Shown piece after piece: positions 20,344-37,199 of a DNA stretch of 64,000 bases. The position numbers and the translations under genes were made by a program. Location of the stretch: contig DASVEF010000299.1 in assembly GCA_036380715.1 (NCBI GenBank), forward strand, positions 7,520-71,519, read 5' to 3'. The DNA is from Thermoanaerobaculia bacterium. Its GTDB lineage: Bacteria; Acidobacteriota; Thermoanaerobaculia; Multivoradales; UBA5704. The notes below the pieces were generated by a model. It worked only from the letters and a program-made list of their open reading frames with translations. It did no database searches and was not told the DNA's origin. Numbering within the stretch: the first letter of the stretch is position 1; every line of letters begins with the position of its first letter.

Positions 20344-20370
20344 GGAGCGGACTCTATCGCATCACCTCTC

Positions 20371-20395
20371 CCCCGCTCGCGCCCGATCCCGATCC
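20371..20395. repeat. 18-bp direct repeat, copy 1 (cccgctcgcgcccgatcc), upstream of the DUF433/DUF5615 cassette
   Basis: Copy 2 at 21133-21150 (cccgctcccgcccgatcc; 17/18 match) lies inside the 3' end of the DUF983 gene. Confidence 0.45.
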
Positions 20396-20434
20396 AATGG
20401 CCAATCCCTGCCTGAGCTGCTGAGCTGTTATAGT

Positions 20435-20770
20435 GTGCTGGTGTCCAAGCTTGAGAAAGCCGAGCAGCTACTGACCGAGATGAACCGGGCAGAGAAGGCG
20501 CAGATTCTCCAGTGGGTGGTCCAGGACTTGGGGGATGCCTTTCCCGGAATCGAAAGCCGTCCGGACGTCTGCGGCGGCGAGCCGTGCATCGTCCGTACCC
20601 GGATTCCCGTCTGGCTGCTCGTCCAGGCGCGGCGTTTGAGCACCAGCGAATCCGACCTGCTGCGGGCCTATCCCACCCTTCGAGCCGAGGATCTGGCCAA
20701 CGCCTGGGCCTACTATCGCGCTCACCCTGAGGAGATCGAGCGCCAGATCCGGGAGAACGAGGCGGCCTGA
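20435..20770 (+). CDS. DUF433-domain protein (antitoxin-like partner of DUF5615)
   Basis: GTG start. CGGEPCIVRTRIPVWLLV...LLRAYPTLRAEDLANAWAYY is the DUF433 signature. 4-bp gap to the DUF5615 gene. Confidence 0.7.
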   Translation: MLVSKLEKAEQLLTEMNRAEKAQILQWVVQDLGDAFPGIESRPDVCGGEPCIVRTRIPVWLLVQARRLSTSESDLLRAYPTLRAEDLANAWAYYRAHPEEIERQIRENEAA

Positions 20771-20774
20771 GCGG

Positions 20775-21116
20775 ATGGCCCGGCTCTACACGAACGAGAA
20801 CTTCCCGCGTCCCACCGCCGAGGAGCTACGCCGGCTCGGGCACGACATTCTGACTGTCCAGGAAGCCGGCTATTCCGGGCAAGCGGTCCCAGACTCTCAA
20901 GTCCTCGACTTTGCCAAGGATGAGGAGCGTGCCGTCGTAACCCTGAATCGGAAACACTTCCTCCGCCTTCACCAGGAACGGCCAGACCATTCAGGAATTG
21001 TCGTCTGCACCTTCGATCCCGACTTTTCAGGCCAAGCCTACAGAATCCATGAAGCCCTGAAGGGCCAGGAGCCGCTCGCCGGTAAGCTCATTCGAGTCAA
21101 CCGGCCAGGGCCGTAA
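20775..21116 (+). CDS. DUF5615-family PIN-like protein (putative toxin partner of DUF433)
   Basis: 113 aa. The N-terminus MARLYTNENFP...LGHDILTVQEAG is typical of DUF5615. Confidence 0.7.
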   Translation: MARLYTNENFPRPTAEELRRLGHDILTVQEAGYSGQAVPDSQVLDFAKDEERAVVTLNRKHFLRLHQERPDHSGIVVCTFDPDFSGQAYRIHEALKGQEPLAGKLIRVNRPGP

Positions 21117-21122
21117 CGGCAG

Positions 21123-21485
21123 TCACGGTCCTTCCCGCTCCCGCCCGATCCAGTAGTTGAGCGCCACGGCGATCCCCTTGCGGTGCGGCAGCGACAGCCC
21201 GATCACCACGACGGCCGCGATGCCGATCACGATCTGGCCCAGCCAGACCCACTCGGGGCGGACCAGGAACATCAGGACCACGAAGGAGCCGGTCAGCCCG
21301 GCTGTGGTCATGTACATGAAGAACCAGGTGTCGCCCGGCTCGCGCTCGAAGCGGAACCCACACACGGTGCAGGCGTCGCGCAGGTGATGCCAGCCGTCGA
21401 AGAGCCGTCCCTCCCCGCAGCGGGGGCAGCGGCCCCGGAAACCCCGGAGCACGGCCTGCCGCAAGCTTTTGGGACGGTTCGTCAC
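21123..21485 (-). CDS. DUF983 zinc-ribbon membrane protein
   Basis: CPRCGEGRLF...CTVCGF (CxxC-x17-CxxC) followed by two TM helices. 4-bp overlap with the upstream TIR-STAND gene, so co-transcribed. Confidence 0.7.
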   Translation of the reverse strand: MTNRPKSLRQAVLRGFRGRCPRCGEGRLFDGWHHLRDACTVCGFRFEREPGDTWFFMYMTTAGLTGSFVVLMFLVRPEWVWLGQIVIGIAAVVVIGLSLPHRKGIAVALNYWIGREREGP

Positions 21486-24400
21486 CCGGGCAGCTTAGAA
21501 CAGGTCTTGCGGTAGGAGAGCTGATCGCCCACGTGGTGCGACCACTCCTCGAGGGTGAGGTTGCGCCCGACCGTACGGCAGGCGGCGTCGATCAGCTTGT
21601 CGAGCTGAAGCGACCAGAGGCGGGCGGTGCCGTCGCCGCTCGCGCTTGCCAGGCTCTGGCCGTCCGGGCTGAAGGCCAGGCTGTAGACGTTGTCCCCGTG
21701 GCCGTGCAAGACGAGCGGCCGGACGTCAGGTTGTTCCAGGTCCCAGAGGCGGACCGTGCGGTCGCGGCTCCCGCTCGCCAGGCGCTTGCCGTCCGAGCTG
21801 AAGACGGCCACCGTGACGCTGTCGTCGTGGCCGGAGAGGACGACCGGGGCCGGGGAGGGGGTCTCCAGGCTCCACACCCGGATGGTCCGGTCGTCGGCGG
21901 CCGTGGCCAGGCGGTGACCGTCCGGGCTGAAGGCCATGCCGTGGACGACCCCCTCGTGCCGGCCCACGTCGACCGCCGCAGTCGAAGGCTTCCCCACGTC
22001 CCACAGCCGGACGTCGCCTCGCCGGGTTCCGGTGGCCAGACGCTTGCCGTCGGGGCTGAACGCGACGGTGACGAAGCTGTCTCCCTTCCGTGAGAGCACG
22101 ACGGGAGCCGCGGTCGGAGCTTCCACGTTCCACAGGCGGACCTCCGCGTCCTCGCTGGCGGCGGCGATCCGGCGCCCGTCCGGGCTGAAGGCGAGGTCCA
22201 CGACCCTCTGTTCCCTGGGACCCTGGAGGACAAACGCCGAGCTCTCGTCCTCGAGGCTCTCGACACGGACGGTGCCCTCCCGGTTGCCGATCGCCACGCG
22301 GCGGCCGTCCGGGCTGAACGCCACGCTCTCGATCTGCCCCATCCAGAAGGAGTGATCCACCGCGGGAGTCTCCGGGTGGCGCAGGTCCCAGACGCGGGCG
22401 TGCCCGTCCCAGCTCGCGGTCGAGACGCGCCCGCCGGTCCGGTCGAAGGCGACCCGCACGACGCGTCCGCCGTGCCCTCCCAGCACGACCGGCTCGGTCT
22501 CCCGGTGCTCCAGGCTCCAGAGTCTCGCGAAGCCGTCCGAGCTCCCGGTGGCCACCCAGCGGCTGTCCGGGCTGAACGCCAGGCTCACGATCGTGTCGTC
22601 GTGGCCGCGGAGCGTGGCGGTCAGGCGGGGAGTCGAAATATCGACCTTCCACAGCCGGAGCGTGGCGTCCTCGCCACCCGTGGCCAGCCAGCGGCCGTCC
22701 GGGCTGAAGGCGAGGATCCGGATGTCGTCCTCGTGTCCCAGCAGAGGGAACGGCTCGCCTCCGCCCTCGGTCCCCAGGAGATAGACCGTGCCGTCCCAGC
22801 TCCCCGTGGCCAGACGGCGGCCGTCCGGACTGAACGCCACGGCGCGGAAGGGGTTCTCGTGCCCGGTCAGGAAGCGGCTGTCGCGCACGCCCGCGGGGTC
22901 CCACAGGCGGACCGTGCCGTCGTCGCTTCCAGACACCAGGATGCTGCCGTCCGGGCTGAACACCAGCACGCCGATGTTGCCCGTATGGCCGGCGAGGACC
23001 ACGGGGGCGGACTGCGGCTCGGCGGTCTTCCAGACCCGCACCTTGTGGTCCCGGGCGCCGGTCGCCACCAGGCTGCTGTCCGGGCTGAAGGCCAGCGCTT
23101 CGATCTCTCCTTCGTGACCCGAGAGGATGGTGGCGGCAGGCTCCGCCGTCGTGAGATTCCAGAGGCGGGCCTTGCGGTCGTCCCCGCCGGCCGCCAGCCA
23201 GCGGCCATCGGCGCTGAAGGCGACCATGCGCACGGGACGCTCGCCGGCGGCGAGGACGCGGGGATGCGCCGAGGGGTTGCGGGAATCCCAGACGCGGACC
23301 GTGCCGTCTTCCCCGCCGGAGGCGAGTTGCGAGCCGCCGGGGTTGAAGGCCAGATCCTTGACATCCCCCTTGTGACCGCCGAGCACCGCGGGCGCGCTCC
23401 CCGGCTGCGCCACGTCCCAGAGCCGCACGGTACCGTCCTCGCTCGCCGTGGCGAGGCGGCGTCCGTCCGGGCTGAAAGCGACTTTCGTGACCCCTGCCTG
23501 GTGGCCAGCCAGGGGGATCGAGCCCGCCACCTTCGCCAGAGTGTGCCGCAACGCCTCCTCGCCGAGGGCGGTCTCCAGCCCGATCTCGCGCTTCAGGGCG
23601 ATGGACTCCAGAGCCAGGAGGAGGCTGCGTTGTGGCGTGTCCTCGATGCCGGTCACCGCCTGGGCGGCGAGCTGGCGCACCAGGGCGGTACGGCCCTGCA
23701 GCTTCGCCGTCTGGCGCTGCAGGAAGGAGACGACGGCCAGGGCCGCGGCGACCAGCCCGACGGCGGCGAGCAGGATCGAGAACCGGCGCATCCGGGCGGC
23801 CGCCTGTCTCTGCGTCTCCTCGCGGGCCTTGGCCTCCTCGGTGAGGCGTTGCGCCGCAACCAGCTCGCGCTGGCGCTGCGCCTCCTTCTCCGCCGCCTCG
23901 CGGTCACGGAGCGCCACGCTCGCGGCGACGAATCCCCGCTCCAGCTCGTTCACCTCGCCGGCGCGCTTCTCCACCAGCTCCTGCGCCGCGGCGAGCTGGG
24001 CGCCGCGCAACAGGCTCCCCTCGTCCTGGCCGAGGCGCAGCCACTCCTCAGCCTGTTCGGTCAACCGGCGCTGGATGCGCAGGGCGGCCCGCCCCTCCTC
24101 GATCCAGCCGCGGAAGCGGGGCCAGTTGCGGATCAGCGCCTCGTGCGACACGTCCACCAGCTCGTCGCCGCTCGCCGCGTCGCGGCCGGTGGTGAGCAGC
24201 CGCGCCTCGGCCAGCCGGCCGACGACCGACTTCAGCTCGGCGTTCTGTCCGGGCAGCTCCTTGAAGCGGGCGCGGCGGCGCGTGTCCTCCGTGCCCTCGC
24301 CGGGCTGCACCAGGCGCAGCAGGACGCGGCGGGCCATCTCCTGCTCGCCGGGCGAGAGCTTCTCCAGCTCCTCCTCCGCCCGCCGGGCGATGGCGCCGTG

Positions 24401-25717
24401 CACGCCGCCGATCGCCGCGTAGGCCTCGTGCGTCAGGCGCCGCCCTTGCCGGCGCTCCCACAGCTCGAGCAGCGCGTGCTCCAGGAGCGGGAGAGCCCCG
24501 GGCTGGCCAGACAGGTCCTGCAGGATGGCGTCGGGCAGCCCTTCCTCCATCTCGAGCCCGACCTGGAGGGCCGGCCCTTCGATCGCCTGGCGCAGCTCGC
24601 TCTCCACCATCGGCGAAACCAGCACGTGGCTGTCCGACATGCGGTCGGCCAGTTGGGGATAGGCCGCGGCGCGGGCGTAGAAATCCGCCCGCATGGTGAC
24701 CACGACCACCGTGCGCCCCTCGGCCACGTTCGCCGCGTACAGCAGGTTGTCGAGGAAGCGCTGCCGCACCTCTTCGGACGGGCAGAGAGTGAACACCTCC
24801 TCGAACTGGTCGACCACGATCACCACCCGGCGCCGCTCGTCGCCCCCGGTCAGGGCGAGCCGCACCGCGGAGTGGAGCGCCTTGTCGCTGACGCTCAACG
24901 TCTCCTGGAGCTGCAGCAGGGTGGCGACCCGGCCGCCTTCGGGATCGAGGACCGGCGCCAGTTGGACGGCCAGCTCGTCGAGCGGCTGCGAGCCCGGCTT
25001 CATGACCAGCACGGGCCATGAGTCGCTGCCCGGCAGCGCGCCCTGACGCAGCGTCGGGACCAGGCCGGCGCGAACCACCGACGACTTGCCGCTGCCCGAC
25101 GGTCCCAGCACGGCGAGGAAGCGGCTCTGGCGCAGCCGCTCCACCAGCCACTGCGTGAGCGCCTCGCGGCCGTGGAAGAAGCGGGCGTCCTCCTCGTGGA
25201 ACGCGGCGAGACCGCGGTAGGGGCAGACGCCGATCTCCGCGACCTCCCCTTCGGAAGGGCCGGGCGGGAGGCCGCGGACGCCGCAGATCAGACGGCGGAA
25301 CGCGTCCTCGTCCGCGAAGCCGTTGCGGAAATCGACCCAGGTGACGCGGCTGAGGAAACGCGGCAGCCGTCCCCGCTCGGGCATCACGGCGCCCTGGAGC
25401 AGCACCGGGATGACCCGGTACTCGGGGGACTTCACCCGCTCGTCGAGGGCCGCCCGCATCTCCTCGTTCTCCCAGGCGCCCAGCCCGTGCGGGCCGAGGA
25501 AAACCGCGCAGGTGATGCTCTCGTCGAGCGCCCTCTCCAGAGCCTCCTGCCAGACCTCGCCGGGGACGAGGTGCCACTTGTCGAGGAACGGCTGCACCCC
25601 GGCGTCGCGCAGCCGCCGGGCCAGCTCCTCCACGAGCGGCTTGTCCGCGCTGTGGTGGCTGAGGAAGACGTCGTAGCGCTTCGCGGGGGCTGCTGCCGGA
25701 GCCGTGGCGGTGCTCAT
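21482..25717 (-). CDS. TIR domain / STAND P-loop NTPase / transmembrane helix / WD40-repeat protein (1411 aa)
   Basis: N-terminal TIR (YDVFLSHHSADKPLVEELARRLRDAGVQPFLDKWHLVPGEVW). STAND N-terminal helix motif GVCPYRGLAAFHEEDARFFHGRE plus Walker A VLGPSGSGKSSVV. Predicted TM segment FSILLAAVGLVAAALAVVSFL. At least 14 WD40 blades (recurring GH...VRLWD/VRVW). Confidence 0.85.
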   Translation of the reverse strand: MSTATAPAAAPAKRYDVFLSHHSADKPLVEELARRLRDAGVQPFLDKWHLVPGEVWQEALERALDESITCAVFLGPHGLGAWENEEMRAALDERVKSPEYRVIPVLLQGAVMPERGRLPRFLSRVTWVDFRNGFADEDAFRRLICGVRGLPPGPSEGEVAEIGVCPYRGLAAFHEEDARFFHGREALTQWLVERLRQSRFLAVLGPSGSGKSSVVRAGLVPTLRQGALPGSDSWPVLVMKPGSQPLDELAVQLAPVLDPEGGRVATLLQLQETLSVSDKALHSAVRLALTGGDERRRVVIVVDQFEEVFTLCPSEEVRQRFLDNLLYAANVAEGRTVVVVTMRADFYARAAAYPQLADRMSDSHVLVSPMVESELRQAIEGPALQVGLEMEEGLPDAILQDLSGQPGALPLLEHALLELWERRQGRRLTHEAYAAIGGVHGAIARRAEEELEKLSPGEQEMARRVLLRLVQPGEGTEDTRRRARFKELPGQNAELKSVVGRLAEARLLTTGRDAASGDELVDVSHEALIRNWPRFRGWIEEGRAALRIQRRLTEQAEEWLRLGQDEGSLLRGAQLAAAQELVEKRAGEVNELERGFVAASVALRDREAAEKEAQRQRELVAAQRLTEEAKAREETQRQAAARMRRFSILLAAVGLVAAALAVVSFLQRQTAKLQGRTALVRQLAAQAVTGIEDTPQRSLLLALESIALKREIGLETALGEEALRHTLAKVAGSIPLAGHQAGVTKVAFSPDGRRLATASEDGTVRLWDVAQPGSAPAVLGGHKGDVKDLAFNPGGSQLASGGEDGTVRVWDSRNPSAHPRVLAAGERPVRMVAFSADGRWLAAGGDDRKARLWNLTTAEPAATILSGHEGEIEALAFSPDSSLVATGARDHKVRVWKTAEPQSAPVVLAGHTGNIGVLVFSPDGSILVSGSDDGTVRLWDPAGVRDSRFLTGHENPFRAVAFSPDGRRLATGSWDGTVYLLGTEGGGEPFPLLGHEDDIRILAFSPDGRWLATGGEDATLRLWKVDISTPRLTATLRGHDDTIVSLAFSPDSRWVATGSSDGFARLWSLEHRETEPVVLGGHGGRVVRVAFDRTGGRVSTASWDGHARVWDLRHPETPAVDHSFWMGQIESVAFSPDGRRVAIGNREGTVRVESLEDESSAFVLQGPREQRVVDLAFSPDGRRIAAASEDAEVRLWNVEAPTAAPVVLSRKGDSFVTVAFSPDGKRLATGTRRGDVRLWDVGKPSTAAVDVGRHEGVVHGMAFSPDGHRLATAADDRTIRVWSLETPSPAPVVLSGHDDSVTVAVFSSDGKRLASGSRDRTVRLWDLEQPDVRPLVLHGHGDNVYSLAFSPDGQSLASASGDGTARLWSLQLDKLIDAACRTVGRNLTLEEWSHHVGDQLSYRKTCSKLPG

Positions 25718-25783
25718 GATGCCAAATCGCGGGATTTCAAGGAGATCCTACGACAAGACGCCTCTTCTGTCGACCCCTGACGG
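25718..25783. repeat. ~55-66 bp direct repeat, copy 1, bracketing the vapBC cassette
   Basis: gatgccaaatcgcgggatttcaaggagatcctacgacaagacgcctcttctgtcgacccctgacgg, compared with 26508-26561 ggtgccaaatcgcggatttcgacaaggcgcccctgttgtcgaccccggggg. Confidence 0.7.
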
Positions 25784-25870
25784 CAAGGAGCATAGAGGCG
25801 CGCTCGGTAGTTGCCCTCATCGGGCAGATCACACGTATACTATGAGTGAGGGCCGTATGCGAGGAAGCTC

Positions 25871-26092
25871 ATGAAGACAAAGCTGACTGTCACCATCGAT
25901 GAGGAGCTGATTCCCAAAGCGAAGCGCTACGCCCGGCAACGGGGAATCTCTCTCTCCCAGCTCATCGAGACGTCGCTGCGGAGCACCACGGAAGGGGAAG
26001 AAACCACCTTCTCCCAGCGCTGGAGGGGGAAGTTCGAACCGGCCAACCGCGATGACGAGCGCTACAAGGCTCTCGCGAAGCGTTACCTGTGA
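25871..26092 (+). CDS. vapB: VapB-type antitoxin (DUF6364-like)
   Basis: 73 aa. MKTKLTVTIDEELIPKAKRYARQRGISLSQLIE is the typical small antitoxin pattern. ATGA overlap with the PIN gene. Confidence 0.65.
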   Translation: MKTKLTVTIDEELIPKAKRYARQRGISLSQLIETSLRSTTEGEETTFSQRWRGKFEPANRDDERYKALAKRYL

Positions 26093-26505
26093 TCGTTCTC
26101 GTCGACACAGATGTACTGATCGACCTGGCGCTCAACCGAGCCCCGAACGCCGAGCCCGCGGCTCATCTTCTCGATCTACTTGAAAGACGGCCGGGAACAG
26201 CCTTCGTGGCTTGGCACTCCCTCGCGAACTTCTACTATGTGGTCTCTCCGATCCGGGGAAAGCAGCCGGCCCGGGATTTCCTCATCGACTTGGCGCGCTT
26301 CATCGAAGTGGCGTCCACGACAACAGAGAGCCTGCTCTACGCGGGCCAGTTGGACATGCCCGACTTCGAGGATGCGATGCAGGTCGCCGCAGCCTTGGCT
26401 TGTCGGGCCGGGCTGATCGCCACCCGGAACCTTCGCCACTATAAGCGGTCCCCGGTCCGAGCCGCGGAGCCACGCACTGTCGTGGAACAACTGCTGGGAA
26501 ACTGA
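26089..26505 (+). CDS. vapC: PIN-domain toxin VapC
   Basis: MIVLVDTDVLID with acidic residues at PIN positions (D6, D8, E..., D...). 138 aa. Confidence 0.85.
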   Translation: MIVLVDTDVLIDLALNRAPNAEPAAHLLDLLERRPGTAFVAWHSLANFYYVVSPIRGKQPARDFLIDLARFIEVASTTTESLLYAGQLDMPDFEDAMQVAAALACRAGLIATRNLRHYKRSPVRAAEPRTVVEQLLGN

Positions 26506-26507
26506 TC

Positions 26508-26561
26508 CATGGTGCCAAATCGCGGATTTCGACAAGGCGCCCCTGTTGTCGACCCCGGGGG
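26508..26561. repeat. Direct repeat, copy 2, bracketing vapBC
   Basis: See 25718-25783. Confidence 0.7.
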
Positions 26562-26584
26562 TGTGAAGGTCCGTTCGCGCGGAA

Positions 26585-26880
26585 GGGAGGATCGTACAGA
26601 CCGGGAGGATCGTCCGGTCCTGCGGTGCGAACGTCCGTTCCTGCGGGGAGACGGCTCGGGCGAGTAGGGAGGAGCGTCCGTTCCTACGGGGAGACGGGCC
26701 GGGCGAGCGGGGAGACGGGCCGTCCGAGTGGGGAGAGCGTTCCGTTCCTACGGGTGGGAAGCTCGTTCGGGCTCCCCCAAGGCCCTCCCCACTGGAACGG
26801 AGCGTCCGTTCGCGTGGGGAGAGGCCTCTCCCCGCACGAACGGAGCTTCCGGGCGCCCGCCGGCGCTTCGCCCCCGCTCG
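26585..26880. repeat. Degenerate tandem repeat array (units ~22 bp, cgtccgttccTRcggggagacgg; irregular spacing) in a ~700-bp non-coding gap
   Basis: At least four copies of the gtccgttcc-containing unit plus gggagacggg repeats. Includes the local palindrome gaacgga-gcg-tccgttc. Confidence 0.6.
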
Positions 26881-27211
26881 CCCCGGCTTTGCCACTGCCG
26901 AAACGGGCGCCGCCGGCGCGTTCCCGCACCAGCGGCGAGCACGTCCACGATCAGGCCACGTCCGTACGGCCTTCCGTCACGTGCGAATCGAGGATCGCAC
27001 CGCAGCGCTCCAGCGCCACCCCGTCGACAGCCCCCGCAGGTACAGGATCGGCAGCACCGCGGCCACCTTCGGCGACCGGCGCGTGTACGGCGGCAGGATC
27101 GAGCTCGTGAAGCGCTGCCGGCGACCCTCCTCGTCCACCCGCCGGTCATTGAGCTACAGGATTTGACCGTGCCTTCCCCAAATGGTGCCCCCTGGGCATC
27201 GCTTCGAAGCG

Positions 27212-30200
27212 TTAGGCGGACGAGTCACGTTGCCAGTCGGCCATTCGCCCAATGAGCCATATGAACGGCTCGACCTGGCCGTTCAACACGCATGCGCCCT
27301 TGATAATGCTGTCAAGCAGTCCCTGCACATCAGACAAGCACAAGGCGGAGACCGCCCGGTTGTCCGTGGGAAGCAATGAACAGAACGGCGTATCTGTTGT
27401 CTCGCGAGCTCCCAACGTGACGTCTCGCTCCTTGATCATAATCGTGATCGGTTCTCCATTGTCTGGGAGTCCGACCGACACGGCGAGATTCGGAGTCGGG
27501 CCATGGGCCCTGGCCAGCGTTTCCTTCAAGTAGGCGGAAAAGGCTTTGGCCCACTCCTCCACGCCGGATCGTCCTGGGGCCACCTCGAATTCGCTTTCGC
27601 CGGACGCGCGATCTTCCAGAGCCTGTCGCTCCTCCTCAGCTTCGCGCTCCGCGTCGATGAGGGCCTCGAGGGTCCTGTCAACGTCCTCTCGTGTATGAGA
27701 AGCCGAGCAGATGAACCTTAGGCGACCTCGTCCGATCTCCACGACCGGGTACGTTACAGCCGCCGTGAGCACGCCACGCTTATATAAGCCGTGTGCAATC
27801 GCATAGAGCTTGTCTTTATCGGAAAAATGCGGGGTGACAATGGGGCCATCTCCTGTCCCGAGGTCATATCCTGCTTCGGAGAACCGCTTCCGCATGTAGG
27901 TAGTTATATCCCAGAGTCGCTCTCGCAGTGCGTCGTCCGCGCTCAATCGGCGCAAGGCGGCGAGCGCTGCCGCGATATCGGCAGGGCTGGTCGTAGCCTG
28001 GAATATAAAAGCTCTGGCGGACGACTTCAGCAGGTCAATGTGCTCCTCTCGGGCGGCAATCACACCCCCAATGCTCCCGAGCGCCTTACTGAGCGTCGTC
28101 ATGATGAAGTCTACCTGGTCGGTGACACCTTGAGAAGCGCAAAGACCGGCTCCTCGAGGGCCATAGAAGCCAAAGGAATGCGCCTCATCCACGAGCACGA
28201 GCGCATCGTATTTCTTCGCCGTGAGCACGATGTCCGCTACCGGCGCCACCCCCTCTCCCATGCTGTAGACGCTTTCGAGAACTACAAGAGCCGTGCGGTA
28301 AGGCGACGCTTCCGTCTTGAGGACTGATTCCAAGTCCGATGGATTGTTGTGTTGAAACGTTCTTATCGTCGCACCGGACAGCCGGGCGCCGTCAACGAGG
28401 GAAGCGTGACAGAGCTGGTCCATCACGACGACATCGTTGTCGCCAAGAATGCCTGCGACAACTCCGAGATTCGCGGTGAATCCTGTGGGGAACAGGCACG
28501 CGGCAGGCTTTCCCACCAACTCGGCAAAGGCTCTCTCGAACTCCAGGTGGAGATCGGTTACGCCGGATGCCACTGCGGATGTTCCCATTCCGGCCCCGAA
28601 GCGCTCCAGGGCAGATCTGGCTTCCTCAATGACCTCCTGATCACGGTTCAGGCCGAGGTACAGGTTGGTGGTCCATATGATGGCCTCGCGTTCTTCATGG
28701 GTGTACATATCGGCGACAGTGCCTCTGTGCGCGCTTCCTGTACGCAGCAACTTGCTGTGGGGGTCTCGGCCACGACGGCCCACCAGCCGCTTGAGCTCCC
28801 GGACGAGCATACCCTTGTCGGTAGCGGACCAGGAGGGCGCCTTCGCAGCCATGAACGGCGGGTAGCTGGACTGAATCTGGGCCTGAAAGCTAGCGAGTGT
28901 ATCCGAGGCTCCACCGCGCGCCTTCTCCGGCGGCGCATGCTCCGTGGCGCTGCTCATCGACTCGAGGACGTAATCGGCCAGAGCAGCAGGAGTAAAGCGC
29001 TGGATAACAGCCGATGCCGGCAGCCTTCGACCTATGTTCGCGGCAAGCCGATTGCTCAGCTCCACCACGGTCAACGAGTCGAGGCCGAGGTCGTTCAATG
29101 AGTGATCCAGCGGCACTTGCTCGGGATCACGAAGACGAAGGAGAGGCGCGATCTCGCCTCGAATGATCGATAGCAGGGCCGCATGCCGCTCGTCCTTCGA
29201 AAGGCCCGCCAGACGGTGCACCCCGCCCCCGGCGTCGCGGGTGACGTCGGCCCCGGAGTGAGGGGCGAGGCATTGGCGCCGGTCAGGATCGCGACTCGCC
29301 TCCGGTTCCGGGAGCTGCTTGCGGTCGAGCTTGCCGTTGGGCAACCGAGGCAGCTCCTCGAGGTGCATCACGACCTGAGGCAGCATGTACTTCGGCAGCC
29401 GCTCCGCCAGGTACGCTCGCGCCGCCTCACGGGTCACCGCCTCGTCCCGGCTCACCACATACACCACGAGCATCTTCTGGCCGCCGCCCCCGTCCACGAC
29501 CGCCGCCGCTGCGCCGTCCACGCCTTCCATCGACTCCAGCGTCGACTCGATCTCTTCGAGCTCTACCCGGAAGCCTCGGATCTTTACCTGTTGGTCGATC
29601 CGGCCCAGGAACTCGATCTCGCCGTCTTCCCTCCACCGGCATAGATCTCCTGTTTTGTACAGCCGCTCTTCCGGAATCGGCCCGGTCGGATCCACCTCGA
29701 TGAACCGCTCCCTCGTAAGCTCCTCGTCGTGCAGGTATCCGCGCCCAAGCTGGTCTCCCGCCAAGTACATCTCTCCTGGAACCCCGACGGGAACCGGCTG
29801 CATGGAATCGTCCAGGATGTACGACCGAGAGCTCGACACCGGCTTGCCGATCGTGATCGACTCCGCACCTGCAGAAACCTCGGTAGCCGTCGAAAAAACC
29901 GTGTCCTCGGTCGCCCCATAGACGTTGACCACCCGCAGGCCCGGCTGCAGCGCGTGAAGCTGGTCCACCAGCGACCGCTTGAGCACTTCGCCCCCCAAGA
30001 CGAAACACCGGATCCCCTCGGGCAGCCGTCCGGTCGCGAGCAACGCCTGCATCCCCGACGGCACCATGGTGCACGTCCTCACCCGGTCCGCCGACGGCAG
30101 CTCCAGCAGGGCCAGCAGGTTCTCGGCCAGCACCACCGTCCCGCCGAGTGACAACGTACCCAGGATCTCCATGACCGAGGCGTCGAAACAGATAGAGGCA

Positions 30201-30901
30201 GCCGACAGCACACCCGACAGCTCCTCGTCATCCAGCAACTTGCGCATCGACCGGGTCATCGCGACAACGCTTCGATGTTCGACGGCGACCCCCTTCGGTC
30301 GCCCTGTCGAGCCCGACGTGTACATGACATACGCCAGGTCGCTCGCCGACGGCCCAGCCACGCCGTCCGCCGTCCACTCCCCCACCTCATCGAGCCGTAC
30401 GAGCTTTGGCACCCCCTCGCAGAGCTCTGCCATACTCTCGCGGTCCACGATGGCGGCCGCTACACGAGCGTGCTCCAGCATGTAGCGCACCCGCTCCCGC
30501 GGATACGCCGGATCCAGCGGCACGTACGTACACCCCGCTCGCAATACCCCTACGAGAGTCGCCACGAGCTCCCACGTGCGGCTCATGCACACCCCGACCA
30601 ACGACCGCGGCTCCACGCCCCGAGCCACGAGCTCGCCCGCAATCGCGCTCGCCCGTTCCGTCAGTCGCTGGTAGTCGATCGCCGTCTTGCCATCGATGAT
30701 CGCCGTCCGCTCCGGATGCGCCTGCGCCTGCTTCTCGATGAGCCCCCAGACCGTCTCCGTCCGGTCGTACGCCTCCTGCGTCCGAGCCCATTCGACGTGA
30801 ACACGTTGCGCCTGCTCCTCGTCCAGCAAGGAGACTCTCCCTCTAGGCACACTCGGATCCTGGGTAACATGCTCCAGCACACGCTTTGGGGTATTGTTCA
30901 T
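27212..30901 (-). CDS. NRPS-like tridomain: adenylation domain, PCP, PLP-dependent alpha-oxoamine synthase, plus a ~130-aa C-terminal domain of unknown function
   Basis: A domain cores A3 [13 protein letters not shown]7 YKTGD, A8 [21 protein letters not shown]10 PNGKLDR; the FDAS Asp implies an amino-acid substrate. PCP motif LGLDSL. AOS/BioF-like class-II aminotransferase ([21 protein letters not shown]-lysine TLSKALG). Confidence 0.85.
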
Positions 30902-30989
30902 CGTAGACTGCCTTTCCCGCTAAATAGTCTCGGTCTACCGGCCGCAACCGTGGAGGGCCGGTTCGCCGATCGCCCGCCGGAGGACGGTC

Positions 30990-33122
30990 CTACCGCCCAA
31001 TGTCGCGCCGCTCCGACTCGGTCCGGGCCCGGAGCGCGCTCGCCAGGAAGCGGGCGGCGAGGCTCCGGGAGAGCAGGCCCCGCTCCCGGAGCACCTCCAG
31101 GGCGCCGGCCACGCACGAGCGGTACTTCCGGCTGCCCAGCGACGGGTCCAGAGGGTCGCACGGAATCTCGGGGAAGACGATCCGCTCGCCGGCCCTGATG
31201 TCGTAGAGGCGGTTGACGGTGCCCCCGGGCCACAGGACCTCCACCGTGGCGGTCTTGGCCCGGCCCAGCCCGAAGAGCTGCGCCAGGGCGTCCTGGGAGG
31301 CGAAGCCCGATCCGCCGGCGACGGGGCGCAGCGTGGTCCGTCCCCCCTCGGGGGTCACCCGGATCACGGCGCCGATGCCGTCCCGGTTGACCCGCCCGTC
31401 GGGCAGCAGGCCCACGGTTCCCAGCGTGCGGACCTCGACCCAGCCGTTGTCGTTGCCGTCGTTGATCTCCACGGCCAGCCCCCCGTCCGGGAACTCGAGC
31501 CCGTTCCAGGTGAAGGCGCCACCTGCGGCCGGGGCGAAGACCTCCACGTATCTGGCGGTGGCATCGAAGGGACTGCCGTACTCGACGGGGTAGCGCTTCA
31601 GGGGGATCTCTTCCGGGATATCGAATGCGGAGGCGGTCACCAGATCCGGAAAGCCGTCCCGGTTCAGATCGCCGGTGGCGCCGCCATGGACGTTGCGCCG
31701 GGCGTGGTCCACGGCGAGGGCGTCCAGGTCGGCCTCGAAGCGGGCGGAGCAGCCCGGGTTGAGGAGGACGGCCCCGGGGTTGTCGGCGTTGATGGTGTGG
31801 AGGGAGCCGTCCAGGCTGCCGAAGAACACCACGTCCGGGTCGCCGTCGTTGTCCAGGTCCGGCGCCATCACAGCCCAGCCGAAGGGGGTGGCCCGGAGCG
31901 CCCCGGGCCCGGCGTCCACGAAGCCCCCTTCGGACGTTCCGAGGAAGGCCCGGGAAGAAAGCTGCCCCCGGGTGAAGGGTATGCCCACGACCGAGAAGAC
32001 GTAGTCGCCCATGTTCGTGGCGAAGAAGTCCATGTGGCCGTCGCAGTCGAAGTCGGCGAACGCGAGGCCCATCCAGGACGTGCCGGGCAGGTCCGTGCCC
32101 ACCCGATGGGTCACGGAGGTGAACCGGCCGGCGCCGTCGTTGTTCAGGACCTGGATTAGCCCGCGGCTCACTTCCGTCGGGGGGAGGCCCCCCTGGTCGT
32201 CGGCCTGGAGCAGGTCCACGTCCCCATCCTGGTCGTAGTCCACCAGGGCCAGGGCCCAGGTGATGGTGGCGGCGCCGTCCCGCGGCGGTCGGAAGCCGGT
32301 GAGGTTCCGGATGCCGGAGCTGACGCTCGCGTCCCGGAAGCGCAGGCGGCCTTCGTTCAGGAAGAGCTGGTTCGGGTGGCTGTGCTCCCAGGGCTCCACC
32401 AGGGTGGCGGTCCGGCGGCTCCAGTCGTAGGAGTTGGCCACCGCCAGGTCCAGCAGGCCGTCGCCGTCCACGTCGCCCACGGAGCAGTGGGTATGGCCCA
32501 GGTCGCTCTTGCCCAGGCCGCTCTCGGCGGTGGCGTCCCGGAAGGTGCCGTCGCCCCGGTTCTCGAACAGGCGGTTCGGCTCCGAGCGGCCCAGCACGAC
32601 CAGATCCGGGTCGCCATCGTTGTCCAGATCGCCGAAGCAGACGCCGGTGGAGTCCTGGTCGGTGGCGGCGACGCCCGCCGCCTCCGCCACGTCCTCGAAG
32701 CGCAGGGCTCCGGTCTCCTCGAGGCGGTTGGCGTACAGGCTGTTGGCGGCACCGGGACCGTTGGTCACGTAGAGGTCCAGGTCGCCGTCGCGGTCGAAGT
32801 CGAGCAGCGCCACGCCTGGTGAGCCGCGGGGCTTCTCCGGCGTGGCGACGACCAGCGGCATCGTGTAGAGGGGCTGAGCCTTGATCCGCTCGAAGACGGC
32901 GTTCGTGGCCGACGGCGCGCGCCGGTAGTCGATCCCGGAAGCCTCGTCCGCCGCCAGGTCGTGGAACGTGACGCCGGCCCCGACGTCAGCGGCGGCCGGC
33001 ACGCCCGCGCCTACGAGCACCGCACGCCGAGCGGACGCGGCTCGACCGTGCCCGCCGCAGGCGGCCAGCACGCCCGCGCCCACGAGCGCCGCGAGCAGGA
33101 TCGTGGCGGTGCGGTGGAGCAT
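30990..33122 (-). CDS. CRTAC1-family protein (FG-GAP/VCBS repeats plus ASPIC/UnbV C-terminal domain), lipoprotein-like signal
   Basis: Repeated DxDxDGxxD calcium-binding beta-propeller motifs (LDFDRDGDLDLYV, FGDLDNDGDPDLVV, GDVDGDGLLDLAV) and a C-terminal ASPIC-like region. Signal peptide LLAALVGAGVLAAC. Confidence 0.75.
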   Translation of the reverse strand: MLHRTATILLAALVGAGVLAACGGHGRAASARRAVLVGAGVPAAADVGAGVTFHDLAADEASGIDYRRAPSATNAVFERIKAQPLYTMPLVVATPEKPRGSPGVALLDFDRDGDLDLYVTNGPGAANSLYANRLEETGALRFEDVAEAAGVAATDQDSTGVCFGDLDNDGDPDLVVLGRSEPNRLFENRGDGTFRDATAESGLGKSDLGHTHCSVGDVDGDGLLDLAVANSYDWSRRTATLVEPWEHSHPNQLFLNEGRLRFRDASVSSGIRNLTGFRPPRDGAATITWALALVDYDQDGDVDLLQADDQGGLPPTEVSRGLIQVLNNDGAGRFTSVTHRVGTDLPGTSWMGLAFADFDCDGHMDFFATNMGDYVFSVVGIPFTRGQLSSRAFLGTSEGGFVDAGPGALRATPFGWAVMAPDLDNDGDPDVVFFGSLDGSLHTINADNPGAVLLNPGCSARFEADLDALAVDHARRNVHGGATGDLNRDGFPDLVTASAFDIPEEIPLKRYPVEYGSPFDATARYVEVFAPAAGGAFTWNGLEFPDGGLAVEINDGNDNGWVEVRTLGTVGLLPDGRVNRDGIGAVIRVTPEGGRTTLRPVAGGSGFASQDALAQLFGLGRAKTATVEVLWPGGTVNRLYDIRAGERIVFPEIPCDPLDPSLGSRKYRSCVAGALEVLRERGLLSRSLAARFLASALRARTESERRDIGR

Positions 33123-33269
33123 CGATCACCTTCTCTCTGATTGGTCCGACGGACAGAGAATCGCCACCTCGCTATACATTATGAGGTGCGCGCGAATGAC
33201 GGAGCGGGACAGGAGGTGGCGGCCGACACGCGCGGGACGGCGAACGGCCAGACCCTCAGCAGGATCGAG

Positions 33270-36200
33270 TCAGCGTAGCTCCCGCGTCAACCACTTCACC
33301 ACGTACTCGCGCAGCTCCGGCATCTCGGGGAACGGCTCGCCATAGCTCTTCATGGCGCGGAACGGCAGCGGCTCCATCCGCAGCGCTTCATAGGTATTGC
33401 GGTCGGCGTCCTTGTCCCAGCCCTGGCTCTGCAGGAAGACGGTGCGGGTCCATCCGTCGCGGACGGGAGGCAGGCCGGAGGCCTCGAATTCGAGGGCGAT
33501 CTCGTCGCCGGGAGCGAGGATGACCGAGCGGTCGTCCGTCTGCGCCAGCAGCTCGCGCACGTCGCCGTAGCGGGTGTAGCGGCCGGGGAACGGCAGCCAC
33601 GGCGACTCGCCCGCCACCTTCTCGTACTCGAAGCCGTGAGGACCGTTGGGCGAGTTGCGGACGAGCCGGGAGAAGCCGCGGTAGCGCAGCTCCGCCTGAC
33701 GAGGCGCCACGCGGGCGCGGACGACGGGGAGGGCGTCGGATGGCTGGCGGGTCCAGGCGATCCTGTCCCAGCCCAGCCACAGGGAGGTGACGATGCGCAG
33801 ACGGCGGGCGCCTGAGGGCAGCGGCGGCGCGTCGACCACCATGGTCTTGGTCTTGCCCGCCGGGAAGCCCATCGAGGGCATCAGGACCTCCCAACCCTTC
33901 TCCGTTTCCACTTCCAGGCGAGGCGGCAGATAGGGAAAGTCGGGACGCTGGGCCGAGGCTAAGTTCAGGCTCGCGTCGGCGGGGAAGATCCAGCCGTCGA
34001 GATGGAGCCGCACCGGGCCGCCGGGCGCCTCGCCGAGATCGAAGGTGAACGTCCACGCTCGCGCCACTCCCTGGTAGGGGCTCGGCTCGTAGCCGGAGGC
34101 GTAGACGTCGTCGCGGGCGCGGACGCGGTCCGTCACCTCGGCCCCTCCACCGTCCCAGGCGGCAGCGACCGGGCGGAGCCCTTGCGAGGCGAGCACGCGC
34201 ACCGGCTGGCGCCGGCCGGGCTCCACCTTGAGGCTGCTCGCCACCTCGACGGCGGCGGGATGGTCCACCACCCAGAGCCGAACGGCGTCGAAGAAGGCGG
34301 CTTCCCACAGCTCCTCGGTGATTCGAAGGCGATAGGCGCCGCCGGCCGGCCGGGCGCCGTCCACCCGCACCAACTCGTCGGGATCCGCGCCGGCCCAGAC
34401 GCCGGGCGCCACCGGCAGGCCGATCGGCGAATTCCACAGCAGGTCGGTGACGAAGTCGAAGCGCTCGCCGGTCCAGGCATAGAGGAACGGGCAGCTTCCC
34501 TTGAGGAGCTGCTCTTCCACCACCCGCTGGTCCACCTGCGGCTGGAGCCGGCTCTGCGGCACGCCGTTCGTCCAGGTCACCCGCAGGATGTCGGCCTGGC
34601 GCAGGCCGCCGAGACCGAAGTGGGTGACGGCGCCGGTGACCTCGCGGAGCTGGTAGGCGCTGCCGGAGCGCACCTCGACGACGGCGCCGAGCCCCTGGAG
34701 GTTGTTCTTGCCGCTGCCCTGGGTCAGCGCCCGCAGCCGCACGGCGAGCCAACGGTTCTTGTTCCCGCCCGCGTTCTCCAGCCGGTGGAGACCGGAGGCT
34801 CCGGCCGCGACGAGATCGAGGTCGCCGTCGGAGTCGAGGTCGGCGGCGATCAATGTGGCGGCTGACACCGGCGCGCCCTCGACCGGCAACGGCTCGAAGA
34901 CGGGCGCGGCGATGGTGCCCCGCTGGCCGAGCACCACCACGCCGTCCGGACCGGCAGCGGCCAGGTCGAGCCGACCGTCGTTGTCGGCGTCGAAGGCGAG
35001 CACGGAAGTGAGCCGCTTGCTGCCGGGCAGTCCCGGGAGCGGCCAGGGGACGAAGCGGCCGCCCACGTTGTGCCAGAGGCTGAGCCCGGAGCCGGCGGCG
35101 GCGAGGTCCGGCAGGCCGTCGTTGTCCAGATCGGCGCTGGCGACGGCCTCGACGGGTGCGGAAGCCGCGAGCCCGCCGGCGGCGGTGCGGTCGGCGAACC
35201 GGCCCTGACGCTGGTTGTCGATCCAGGCGATCCCCTGCGCGTGGGCCATGACCAGGTCGAGATCGCCGTCGCGGTCGAGATCGCTCGCCGCGAGGTCCCG
35301 GATCCCGGCGAACGGGAGCCGCGGCAAAGTCTGCGGTCCGACGGGCTCGAGCGGCCCTTGAAGCGCGTTGCGGAAGAGCTCGATCGCGGGCGTCTCGCCG
35401 CCGCCCACGGCAAGGTCGAGATCTCCCTCGATGTCGAAATCGAGCACGGCGGCGGCCGTTCCTCCCGCCTTGGTCAACCCGGCGCCGGAGGTCGCGTCAT
35501 CGAAGCCCCCGTCCCCCCTCCCCCGCCAGAAGACGACCCGCTTGGGTCCGAAGCCGATCAGGTCGGTCCGGCCGTCGTTGTCGAGGTCCGCGGCCAGGAG
35601 CCCTTCGATTCCCGCCGCCTCCGGCCCCGCCACGGGCTCGCCGCCGCGCCGCACCTCCAACCGCGGCGCCTCACCGCCTTGGACCCAGGCGAGGTCCGCC
35701 TTGTCGTCGCCGTCGAAGTCGGCGGCGGCCAGGGCGCGGTCGGCGGCCGGCTCGGCCGCGAGCGCGGCGGTCTGGAAGCGCACCGGCAATGGATCGCCGA
35801 AGGAGGAAGGAGGCGGCTCGGCCGCGAACCGCTCGACGGGAAGGCCCAGGACGCCGGGCAACAGCTCATTCAGGCTCTGCTGGTAAACGGCGGTGGGCTT
35901 CAGGACGTTTTCCAGGCGGATGGCCGGCACACGGGCCGCCGCCACCTCTCCAGATTCCAGTGCGGCGAGCACCGGCGCCAGGGCAGAGGAAGCCGCCGGA
36001 GACGCCGTGCCGGCCAGCTCGCGAACGCGCAGGAAGGCCCGCGTGGCTTCCGCGCGGTCGCCGGCGGCGACGGCCCGCTGACCGGCTTGGAGCAGGACGA
36101 CCAGGTTCTCCGGCCGCAGCCGCGAGAGAGCCTTCAAGGCGTCCGCGAGGGCCGCTTCGGCCTCCGGACCGGAAAGCTGCGCCGCCTGGCGGTAGAGCGA

Positions 36201-36608
36201 GTATTGGACGTCCACGCGATCCGGCGCCGCCTGCACGGCTCGGCGGTAGGCGGCGAGCGCCTCTTCGGGCTTGCCGCTCCAGTGCAGCACGTCCCCCTGA
36301 ATCGCCAGCAGGTCGGCCCGGTCCGGCGCCTTGGCGAGCGCCTGCGCGATCCAACTCTGGGCCTCCTCGTTCTTCTGCTGCCGCAGGGCGGCGATGGCGA
36401 GGTTGGCGTAGGCGAGAGGATCGGCCGGCGCCAGCTCCTGGAGCTTGCGGAAGGTTTTGGCGGCCTCGGCGGGCCGCTCGTTCTCGAGCTGGGCCAGGCC
36501 GAGGTTGCGCAGCGTCGCGGCCTGGCTGGAGACCGGCGCGGATGCAGGCTGCGGAGCGGGACCCGGCATCAAGAAAGCGAGGGCGAGGAGGAGGAGCAGA
36601 CAGATCAT
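33270..36608 (-). CDS. TPR-repeat plus FG-GAP/VCBS-repeat plus ASPIC/UnbV protein (CRTAC1-like), secreted
   Basis: Start at MICLLLLLALAFL (signal peptide). N-terminal TPR region, then many DxDxDG propeller repeats, then a C-terminal ASPIC-like domain. Confidence 0.75.
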   Translation of the reverse strand: MICLLLLLALAFLMPGPAPQPASAPVSSQAATLRNLGLAQLENERPAEAAKTFRKLQELAPADPLAYANLAIAALRQQKNEEAQSWIAQALAKAPDRADLLAIQGDVLHWSGKPEEALAAYRRAVQAAPDRVDVQYSLYRQAAQLSGPEAEAALADALKALSRLRPENLVVLLQAGQRAVAAGDRAEATRAFLRVRELAGTASPAASSALAPVLAALESGEVAAARVPAIRLENVLKPTAVYQQSLNELLPGVLGLPVERFAAEPPPSSFGDPLPVRFQTAALAAEPAADRALAAADFDGDDKADLAWVQGGEAPRLEVRRGGEPVAGPEAAGIEGLLAADLDNDGRTDLIGFGPKRVVFWRGRGDGGFDDATSGAGLTKAGGTAAAVLDFDIEGDLDLAVGGGETPAIELFRNALQGPLEPVGPQTLPRLPFAGIRDLAASDLDRDGDLDLVMAHAQGIAWIDNQRQGRFADRTAAGGLAASAPVEAVASADLDNDGLPDLAAAGSGLSLWHNVGGRFVPWPLPGLPGSKRLTSVLAFDADNDGRLDLAAAGPDGVVVLGQRGTIAAPVFEPLPVEGAPVSAATLIAADLDSDGDLDLVAAGASGLHRLENAGGNKNRWLAVRLRALTQGSGKNNLQGLGAVVEVRSGSAYQLREVTGAVTHFGLGGLRQADILRVTWTNGVPQSRLQPQVDQRVVEEQLLKGSCPFLYAWTGERFDFVTDLLWNSPIGLPVAPGVWAGADPDELVRVDGARPAGGAYRLRITEELWEAAFFDAVRLWVVDHPAAVEVASSLKVEPGRRQPVRVLASQGLRPVAAAWDGGGAEVTDRVRARDDVYASGYEPSPYQGVARAWTFTFDLGEAPGGPVRLHLDGWIFPADASLNLASAQRPDFPYLPPRLEVETEKGWEVLMPSMGFPAGKTKTMVVDAPPLPSGARRLRIVTSLWLGWDRIAWTRQPSDALPVVRARVAPRQAELRYRGFSRLVRNSPNGPHGFEYEKVAGESPWLPFPGRYTRYGDVRELLAQTDDRSVILAPGDEIALEFEASGLPPVRDGWTRTVFLQSQGWDKDADRNTYEALRMEPLPFRAMKSYGEPFPEMPELREYVVKWLTRELR

Positions 36609-37199
36609 GCGAACCGCATTGTATCGTCCGCGCGGGCCCCTCACCTCCCCGGCCCTCCTCTCCCCGAGGGTCTGTGAATATATCGAGGGTCACTGCTGTC
36701 CAAGAACGGTCTGCCAGGCTGATGAGAAGCCAGTCGCGAGGCGGGTTTCTGTGGTCCAGAGCGGCACTTTGGCGGTCCAGGTCTGGGGGGTCATGAAGGG
36801 AGCTGTCCAAGAGACCCAGCAAGGAGAGGCTGAGCTGTTCAGGAGGTGGCAGCCGGGGCGGAGTATCAAAGGACTTGTTCAACTACTCATTCAGATCGCG
36901 GTAGGTAAACAGGTTCCAGACGCAGGAGCGAGGCTAGGTGGAGGGCCTTGAAGAACAGCTCGATCGGGGCCTAGCAGGTGTCAGCCTCCGCCTCGTCGAG
37001 CGGCTCAAGGAGCGCTTCGACCCACTCCGCGCGCCACTCCTGCGGGTCGTCTTCAACCTCGACCGCCGGGTCGACCTGCCGGCGATGGAGGGGCTCTCGG
37101 TCCGGCTCCGGCCGACGCCGATCACCCACACGCAGCTCGACTTGAGCGTCAACGTCCTCGAAGAGGGAGGCCGCCTCGGGCGGAGACGGCGGGCCGCCC

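Follow-up and report, generated by a model that had tools for sequence, protein, structure and literature searches.

Release of a carrier-bound chain by an alpha-oxoamine synthase (AOS) fused to the carrier domain is established in assembly lines of polyketide synthases (PKSs) and of PKSs combined with nonribosomal peptide synthetases (NRPSs), as in SxtA (saxitoxin) and PigH, RedN, and RedL (prodiginines). Single-module enzymes with an adenylation (A), a carrier (T), and a reductase (R) domain, such as AusA and its relatives, release amino aldehydes that give rise to pyrazinones and pyrazines, and they often make up one-gene pathways. The gene described here lies on the minus strand (27212..30901) of a 64-kb stretch of contig DASVEF010000299.1 from a Thermoanaerobaculia bacterium, hereafter called the window, and its product joins an A, a T, and an AOS domain to a C-terminal domain with a predicted sterol-carrier-protein-2 (SCP2) fold. 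An A-CP-Aminotran_1_2 layout was catalogued in 2013 by Milano et al., for example in Microscilla marina A1ZVW4 and Blastopirellula marina A3ZWL3 (PMC3870968); the specificity was given as "Nrp" or unknown, no product was assigned, and no C-terminal domain, horizontal spread, or function was noted. Related logic is known from bacterial serine palmitoyltransferase (SPT), which works with a dedicated acyl carrier protein (ACP) and an acyl-ACP synthetase (PMC9386255), and from SgaAB, in which a PKS and an AOS act in sphingolipid synthesis (PMC12134224). BioWF is a natural fusion of pimeloyl-CoA synthetase and AONS (PMC9544090).

On balance, the window protein is read as a self-contained synthetase that would condense an aliphatic aminoacyl thioester with a small amino acid to an alpha,alpha'-diaminoketone. 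In the proposed mechanism, the A domain would activate an aliphatic L-amino acid (Ile-, Val-, or Leu-like) with ATP and load it onto the phosphopantetheine of Ser609. In the AOS domain, a second amino acid of small size would form an aldimine with pyridoxal phosphate (PLP), and the resulting carbanion would attack the tethered aminoacyl thioester, with loss of CO2 and release of the alpha,alpha'-diaminoketone. Ser is slightly favored as the second amino acid because the nearest relatives of the AOS domain are SPTs of Bacteroidota, with Gly or Ala equally possible. The SCP2-like domain may keep the tethered substrate, or the product, at the release site by binding its hydrophobic part. The diaminoketone would readily dimerize to dihydropyrazines or pyrazines, or host enzymes may reduce the product.

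The gene is a complete open reading frame (ORF) with an ATG start and encodes 1229 amino acids. An alternative TTG start 24 codons into the ORF is used for the public protein P0001 (1205 amino acids; from a metagenome-assembled genome [MAG] of Thermoanaerobaculia, Acidobacteriota), which is otherwise identical; the N-terminal stretch of about 30 residues is not conserved across the family. Pfam assigned AMP-binding (residues 56-390; 4e-78), AMP-binding_C (450-524), PP-binding (580-645), and Aminotran_1_2 (740-1081; 2e-43). An earlier note on this DNA, made from the sequence alone, had described a single 1229-residue protein combining an A domain, a peptidyl carrier domain, and an AOS domain; the ORF, Pfam, and NCBIfam TIGR01733 all confirm this description, and the motifs quoted there, FDAS, LGLDSL (Ser609), and TLSKALG (Lys939), were all found in the translation. 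The A-T-AOS-SCP2 protein has the appearance of an intact, stand-alone, single-module NRPS-like synthetase. A hairpin-forming 3' tail of 45 nucleotides (27167..27211, minus strand) follows the gene; it is kept with the gene in two other Acidobacteriota loci (L036 and L065), and the block shared with them ends there. Searches with Rfam in four loci revealed no riboswitch or leader near the synthetase gene.

The A domain (about residues 40-535; 29297..30784, minus strand) retains core motifs A3-A10, carries a remnant of the linker between condensation (C) and A domains at its N terminus, and aligns over its full length with NRPS A domains, e.g., those of LgrA. It scored 399.8 bits with the amino acid adenylation model TIGR01733, above the cutoff of 317.4, and 263 and 31 bits with PF00501 and PF13193, respectively. 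With code positions and residue equivalences assigned by hand from motif anchors, Asp240 corresponds to GrsA D235, which binds the alpha-amino group, and Lys524 corresponds to K517 of motif A10; both residues are present in 133 of the 133 family sequences compared. The 10-residue specificity code, whose extraction the earlier note had proposed as a check, reads DAMTVGVVFK and is aliphatic-like. The family pattern across the 133 sequences is D-[PAT]-M-[IVT]-V-G-[VA]-V-[YF]-K, with the consensus DPMIVGVVYK, the last five residues of which (GVVYK) are the same as those of the Ile code DGFFLGVVYK. The code suggests a hydrophobic, small substrate pocket shut by bulky residues, and it resembles aliphatic codes. 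A hint of glycine specificity based on LgrA was dropped, since the high score in the PDB search was the sum of two A-domain matches. In one family member, P0033 (L065, 1259-5632), an additional N-terminal stretch of about 228 residues matches part of a condensation domain, which hints that the A domain was derived from a C-A-T module.

The A domain bears directly on a different explanation, that the protein is a lipid (sphingoid-base-like) synthase. The A domain would then activate a fatty acid or another hydrophobic carboxylic acid, the carrier would deliver it to the SPT-type AOS domain for condensation with serine, and the SCP2 domain would bind the acyl chain, so that the enzyme would be a fusion of the three-protein system of acyl-ACP synthetase, ACP, and SPT found in Proteobacteria. 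We consider this explanation unlikely, and the main argument against it is the invariant amino acid signature, as the A domain passes the amino acid adenylation model and the Asp that binds the alpha-amino group occurs in every member. In addition, the C-A linker remnant is typical of NRPS elongation modules, the pocket is shut by V, V, V, and Y/F and is unlike the shape expected for a long chain, and no ceramide synthase or reductase gene lies nearby in any examined locus.

The carrier domain (T/ACP-like; residues 580-645; 28967..29164, minus strand) matched PF00550 with 39.6 to 42.7 bits, compared with a cutoff of 20.8. Its Ser609, in LGLDSL, is the predicted phosphopantetheine attachment site, and family-wide conservation of the D-S-L residues is at least 90%. 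A conserved linker (residues 646-729) precedes the AOS domain (about residues 730-1090; 27632..28714, minus strand), whose nearest solved relative is the SPT of Sphingobacterium multivorum (3a2b; 40% identity, 245 bits). The AOS catalytic residues H832-A833-S834, D905, H908, the PLP lysine Lys939, and R1062 align with those of the S. multivorum enzyme and show a conservation of at least 90% across the family; the roles of the PLP lysine, the His-Ala-Ser motif, the Asp and His contacting PLP, and the carboxylate-binding Arg are those described previously (PMC6148460). A lack of PLP-binding residues, which the earlier note had named as an observation that would overturn its assignment, was therefore not found. 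The AOS domain scored below the equivalog cutoffs of BioF (322 versus 426 bits), KBL (314 versus 460 bits), the SPT models (306 to 312 versus 500 to 640 bits), ALAS (248 versus 339 bits), and the CqsA type (192 versus 428 bits). It is judged from sequence to be an AOS-family enzyme, yet a member of no named AOS subfamily.

The last three domains recur as a block at the end of a different type of assembly line. Residues 560-1229 are 44% identical to and colinear with the last 663 residues of P0144, with which a reducing PKS module (AT-DH-KR-ACP-AOS) terminates, through the carrier, the linker, the AOS domain, and the SCP2-like domain. A reciprocal search with the P0144 end ranked the A-T-AOS family first, followed by standalone Bacteroidales AOS proteins of about 395 amino acids at 36% to 38% identity, which are taken as SPT-like. 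A HMMER scan with the SCP2-like domain yielded 25 matches among 1.84 billion representative proteins, nearly all of them pieces of the same family. All of the examined matches were AOS proteins except P0143 (nSTAND/TPR), whose weak match (3.6e-06) consisted of seven short stretches. Among shorter proteins with a T-AOS-SCP2 arrangement, P0174 represents the full architecture in a frameshifted or split copy, and P0162 has an uncalled 2.1-kb stretch upstream. The homology and colinearity with the PKS module end suggest that the carrier-AOS-SCP2 block is one evolutionary and functional unit, a putative chain-release cassette for carrier-bound thioesters, which is joined here to an NRPS loading domain. 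They also argue for carrier-tethered acyl donors as the ancestral substrates of the AOS domain and lend indirect support to the proposed decarboxylative Claisen chemistry.

A second route to a released product is also affected by this homology. In this route, the AOS domain would act like KBL and combine an acyl-CoA with an amino acid into a free aminoketone, the amine of which would release the aminoacyl group from the carrier by aminolysis; cyclization of the N-aminoacyl-aminoketone would then yield a pyrazinone-type signal, as in DPO/AI-3 chemistry. The protein has no C, thioesterase (TE), or R domain for release, and its AOS domain scores alike with the KBL, BioF, and SPT models, both of which are consistent with such an amide route, and pyrazinone and pyrazine signals from aminoketones are known chemistry. 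However, the order of the carrier-AOS fusion and the homology with the PKS end point to a carrier-bound thioester as the direct substrate of the AOS domain, SxtA and PigH/RedL use a carrier-bound thioester directly, and uncatalyzed aminolysis would be inefficient. The amide route is thus regarded as distinctly improbable, and the direct condensation to a diaminoketone is preferred.

The SCP2-fold domain (about residues 1110-1229; 27215..27574, minus strand) contains the invariant signature G-Q-x-E-P-F-x-W-L-x-x-R. The earlier note had recognized no motif in the C-terminal stretch of about 130 residues, which holds for Pfam (no match, including to PF02036, at an E value of ≤10) and fails for the fold, which is SCP2-like. 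A profile of 27 sequences of the C-terminal domain also had no match in the PDB at an E value of ≤10. For the last 145 residues, an AlphaFold2 model that drew on 32 homologues had a pLDDT of 81.5 (about 90 in the core); along the chain, a helix is followed by four strands, two helices, one strand, and a final helix. Structure comparison revealed a five-stranded sheet covered by helices that is superposable on solved SCP2 structures, and the model therefore places the domain in the SCP2 fold, the similarity being structural only. The conserved hydrophobic residues W1117, F1121, L1195, L1196, F1213, and W1215 fit a putative hydrophobic cavity. Two cysteines conserved in at least 90% of the members were considered as catalytic residues and dropped, since they are substituted in several members. 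No report of an SCP2 domain in proteins combining an A domain with an AOS domain was found in the open-access literature.

The AOS and SCP2 domains also provide the strongest points for the lipid synthase, namely, an SPT-like AOS together with a lipid-binding fold at the C terminus. Outside the family, the AOS domain is closest to SPTs, as seen in the matches to 3a2b and to the Bacteroidales proteins, and the homologous cassette terminates a reducing PKS module. In addition, sphingolipid routes with separate acyl-ACP synthetase, ACP, and SPT (PMC9386255) and with PKS and AOS (PMC12134224) are documented.

The earlier note had called the gene an orphan; rather than a lone oddity, it belongs to a widespread and horizontally mobile family. 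More than 120 sequence clusters match the window protein in length and have 67% to 92% identity to it. A scan of one genome per species yielded about 36 near-full-length loci with identities of 58% to 89%, some of them in finished chromosomes. The loci are distributed among Thermoanaerobaculia and other Acidobacteriota, Polyangium and Archangium, Gemmatimonadota, Luteimonas, Marilutibacter, Microbulbifer, Kangiella, Alcanivoracaceae, Janthinobacterium, and Aquimarina, and more members were found in Microscilla (P0172), Kordia, Pseudoalteromonas, and others. Conservation of 66% to 90% extends over the entire length, including the SCP2 domain, and dN/dS values range from 0.24 to 0.36. The synthetase gene is under purifying selection.

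The gene is a single-gene unit that was recently transferred among at least five phyla, as the following features indicate. First, dS values are low (0.29 to 0.69) between the window gene and those of Myxococcota, Gemmatimonadota, and Beta- and Gammaproteobacteria. Second, the window gene shares 87.4% nucleotide identity over 3573 nucleotides with that of Polyangium aurulentum and 84% to 85% with that of Archangium, and the similarity ends at the ORF borders. Third, the G+C content of the gene is unlike that of its hosts, differing from the flanks by -0.07 to -0.10 in high-GC hosts and by up to +0.13 in low-GC hosts; the G+C content at third codon positions (GC3) of the window gene is 0.75, compared with 0.85 to 0.95 for most of its neighbors, which is evidence for a foreign origin. 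Fourth, the phyla are interleaved in a neighbor-joining tree. No family member was found on plasmids among the 72,556 records of PLSDB. Transposase genes also point to transfer. In the Kangiella MAG (L014), IS200-like Y1 transposase genes flank the synthetase gene on both sides (2108-2722 and 7581-8264), and in Janthinobacterium sp. ROICE36 (L034), an IS240/IS6-type transposase gene (13786-14478) lies directly downstream. Two MAGs contain diverged gene copies on separate contigs (L003, L015, and L029 in one; L006 and L027 in the other), which reflect either paralogy or a mixed bin.

The distribution and conservation of the family also allow a third explanation to be weighed, that the gene is a decaying relic or an assembly artifact, i.e., a broken, functionless piece of a larger NRPS or PKS. 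The C-A linker remnant at the N terminus, the partial condensation domain of P0033, and a few copies that appear to be frameshifted or split (L036 and L067) speak for such a relic. However, the frame is intact and of equal length in more than 120 sequence clusters, every catalytic residue is kept, the dN/dS values are those given above, and the gene is present in finished chromosomes. The relic or artifact is hardly credible and is already contradicted by the data in hand. The possibility that the gene is a fragment of a larger assembly line, which the earlier note had offered for refutation, was checked as well; more than 35 loci, those of finished genomes among them, contain the complete gene on its own.

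Several points weigh against the synthesis of a diaminoketone by this family. Searches of the open-access literature revealed no characterized family member and no biochemically characterized amino-acid-type A-T-AOS protein, only the domain catalogue of 2013. The specificity code exactly matches no known code, and the substrate of the A domain was assigned by resemblance and by hand. The amino acid partner of the AOS domain cannot be read from the sequence; in SPT, serine is recognized mainly via the PLP phosphate and Lys (PMC6148460). An SCP2 domain together with an SPT-like AOS would suit a lipid better than a short amino acid. In addition, a dN/dS of about 0.3 is rather relaxed.

No biosynthetic partner of the synthetase was found. 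The earlier note had stated that no condensation, thioesterase, or reductase gene is adjacent, and such genes, as well as PKS genes and further NRPS genes, are absent from the whole 64-kb window. The search for homologs and their neighborhoods that it had suggested revealed the same architecture across loci, and an all-versus-all ORF comparison of 37 loci, with Pfam annotation of the recurrent neighbors, revealed neither a neighbor conserved across lineages nor a biosynthetic partner. A glutathione S-transferase (in the Luteimonas group only), a major facilitator superfamily transporter and a MOSC protein (in three close Microbulbifer loci, those of M. echini, M. epialgicus, and M. variabilis ATCC), and Ser/Thr kinases or TPR proteins were considered as partners and judged to reflect lineage synteny or chance.

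The only conserved neighbor is a protein of the CRTAC1 type. The earlier note had described two co-oriented CRTAC1-type neighbors, and Pfam assigned both to FG-GAP/UnbV_ASPIC, one of 710 amino acids (30990..33122, minus strand) with a lipoprotein signal and an LAAC lipobox and a second paralog at 33270-36644 (minus strand); of the two, the former alone is a conserved partner, and this holds for Acidobacteriota only. In each of the eight Acidobacteriota loci that make up the clade of the window gene, the 710-residue ASPIC protein adjoins the synthetase gene; its amino acid identities are 85% to 90% in seven loci, and it has at most 45% local identity with the second paralog. Its gene lies upstream of the synthetase gene in five loci (the window, L004, L028, L015, and L029) and downstream in three (L036, L065, and L003), and these two gene orders amount to a circular permutation of the block. 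A block of about 6 kb (27167-33158 in the window) occurs in both circular orders across Acidobacteriota genomes, with exact junctions and nonsyntenic flanks. The GC3 of the ASPIC gene is 0.93, which is host-like and unlike that of the synthetase gene. In other phyla, the ASPIC protein is not found beside the synthetase gene and so cannot be required for catalysis. A broader proposal, which we regard as possible but doubtful, is that one mobile gene constitutes a complete pathway to an undescribed alpha,alpha'-diaminoketone scaffold (or a derived pyrazine or diamino-alcohol) built with PLP through a new C-C bond on an NRPS-tethered aminoacyl thioester, that the SCP2 domain is obligatory in a new type of release cassette, and that the surface ASPIC lipoprotein cooperates with the synthetase in Acidobacteriota as a signal/receptor or toxin/handling partner.

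The true upstream spacer of the synthetase gene is 88 bp long. The gap at 25718-27211, which the earlier note had placed upstream, is in fact downstream (3'), since the gene is on the minus strand. Its description as repeat-rich and noncoding is only partly correct; a true repeat array is confined to 26611-26846, and the gap also holds a VapBC-like pair. The array consists of five copies of CGTCCGTTCCnnCGGGGAGA with a 21/43-nucleotide spacing, one of them inverted, compared with 0.27 expected by chance, and no copies occur elsewhere in the window. The pair consists of an antitoxin-like (VapB-like) ORF of 73 amino acids (25871-26092, plus strand) and a PIN_3/VapC ORF of 138 amino acids (26089-26505, plus strand; Pfam, 3e-17), which overlap by 4 nucleotides. 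It lies between direct repeats at 25715-25777 and 26508-26556 (about 50 to 60 nucleotides, 85% to 94% identical) and has a GC3 of 0.74, which is atypical for the region; the repeat-bracketed cassette looks as if it had been inserted or duplicated.

Further genes of the conflict-system type occur nearby. A protein of 1411 amino acids (21482-25717, minus strand) has a TIR-like N terminus, recognized by the TIR/SEFIR models of PADLOC, and combines it with an nSTAND1 NTPase and some 13 WD40 repeats. This protein is encoded about 1.5 kb from the synthetase gene and is by appearance a candidate NLR/Avs-type conflict system. Adjacent genes for DUF433 (154 amino acids) and DUF5615 (113 amino acids) proteins form a toxin-antitoxin-like pair (20306-21116, plus strand). 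In other loci, VapBC and SIR2 occur in L065, and the gene of a distant member (L066, 1-7793) lies beside a diversity-generating retroelement (RVT_1, bAvd, and HTH_17) and two SIR2_2/NACHT/FGE-sulfatase proteins. Elsewhere in the window, an Acido-Lenti-1 small RNA (Rfam RF01687; 55834-55879, plus strand) scored 42.5 bits, compared with a gathering score of 37, which is consistent with an Acidobacteriota origin.

Such surroundings raise the question of whether the gene is cargo of conflict or defense islands, its product being a toxic or signaling small molecule directed against phages or competitors. This role is compatible with the favored chemistry and would explain the mobility of the gene. 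The TIR-nSTAND1-WD40 protein, the VapBC-like pair, and the DUF433/DUF5615 pair of the window are typical of such islands and in line with it, as are VapBC and SIR2 in L065, the retroelement and SIR2-NACHT proteins in L066, and the transposases in L014 and L034. However, no PADLOC model matches the synthetase protein, the neighbors differ from locus to locus, and kinases and STAND proteins are so numerous in these genomes that their adjacency may be due to chance. In addition, there is no link with plasmids in the records searched; phages were not searched. With both sides considered, island cargo is accorded little probability.

If the favored chemistry is correct, this would be, judging from the literature found, the first NRPS-like enzyme to release an aminoacyl thioester via a C-C bond, and a single protein would form alpha,alpha'-diaminoketones out of two amino acids with ATP, which would be relevant for natural-product discovery and for biocatalysis, a field in which engineering of AOS enzymes for aminoketone synthesis is under way. 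The family is also a clear case of a biosynthetic unit consisting of one gene that has passed very recently between Acidobacteriota, Myxococcota, Gemmatimonadota, Proteobacteria, and Bacteroidota, and such exchange implies a portable selective benefit. The cultured carriers Polyangium, Luteimonas, Marilutibacter, Microbulbifer, Janthinobacterium, and Aquimarina make the question tractable. The synthetase is nevertheless one of many orphan NRPS-like enzymes, and its domain order has been on record since 2013.

Among the described systems, the layout catalogued by Milano et al. (PMC3870968) has the same three-domain order, and P0172 of Microscilla is a member of the family. Like BioWF (PMC9544090), the synthetase combines an ATP-dependent acid-activating enzyme and an AOS in a single polypeptide, whereas BioWF uses a CoA thioester without a carrier, serves biotin synthesis, and has an activating domain unrelated to NRPS A domains. 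The logic of combining an adenylating enzyme with a carrier and an SPT-like AOS is shared with the acyl-ACP synthetase-ACP-SPT system (PMC9386255) and SgaAB (PMC12134224); however, those systems act on fatty or polyketide chains with separate proteins, whereas the synthetase unites its domains in one chain, has an A domain of the amino acid type, and lacks downstream sphingolipid genes. As in SCPx thiolase-SCP2, MFE-2, alkyl sulfatases (YjcS), and UbiJ, an SCP2 fold would be placed at the C terminus of an enzyme handling hydrophobic thioesters or lipids, although the sequence of the window domain has no detectable similarity to those of these proteins.

AusA is among the NCBIfam matches of the window protein, and the synthetase resembles the A-T-R enzymes in being a minimal thiotemplate enzyme whose release step would produce a reactive alpha-amino carbonyl. 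Unlike in those enzymes, release would occur by PLP-dependent C-C bond formation rather than by NAD(P)H reduction. The synthetase shares with SxtA, PigH, RedN, and RedL an AOS domain directly after the carrier in one polypeptide and, presumably, decarboxylative Claisen release with an amino acid. Unlike in those proteins, the donor would be loaded by an amino-acid-type A domain and the acyl group would carry an alpha-amine, and the window protein has no KS/AT or other module and has a predicted SCP2-fold domain after the AOS. The novelty would thus lie in a release cassette that uses PLP to make a C-C bond, with an SCP2-fold domain, on a single-module NRPS-like enzyme, a function that we infer from the homologies and conserved residues described above.

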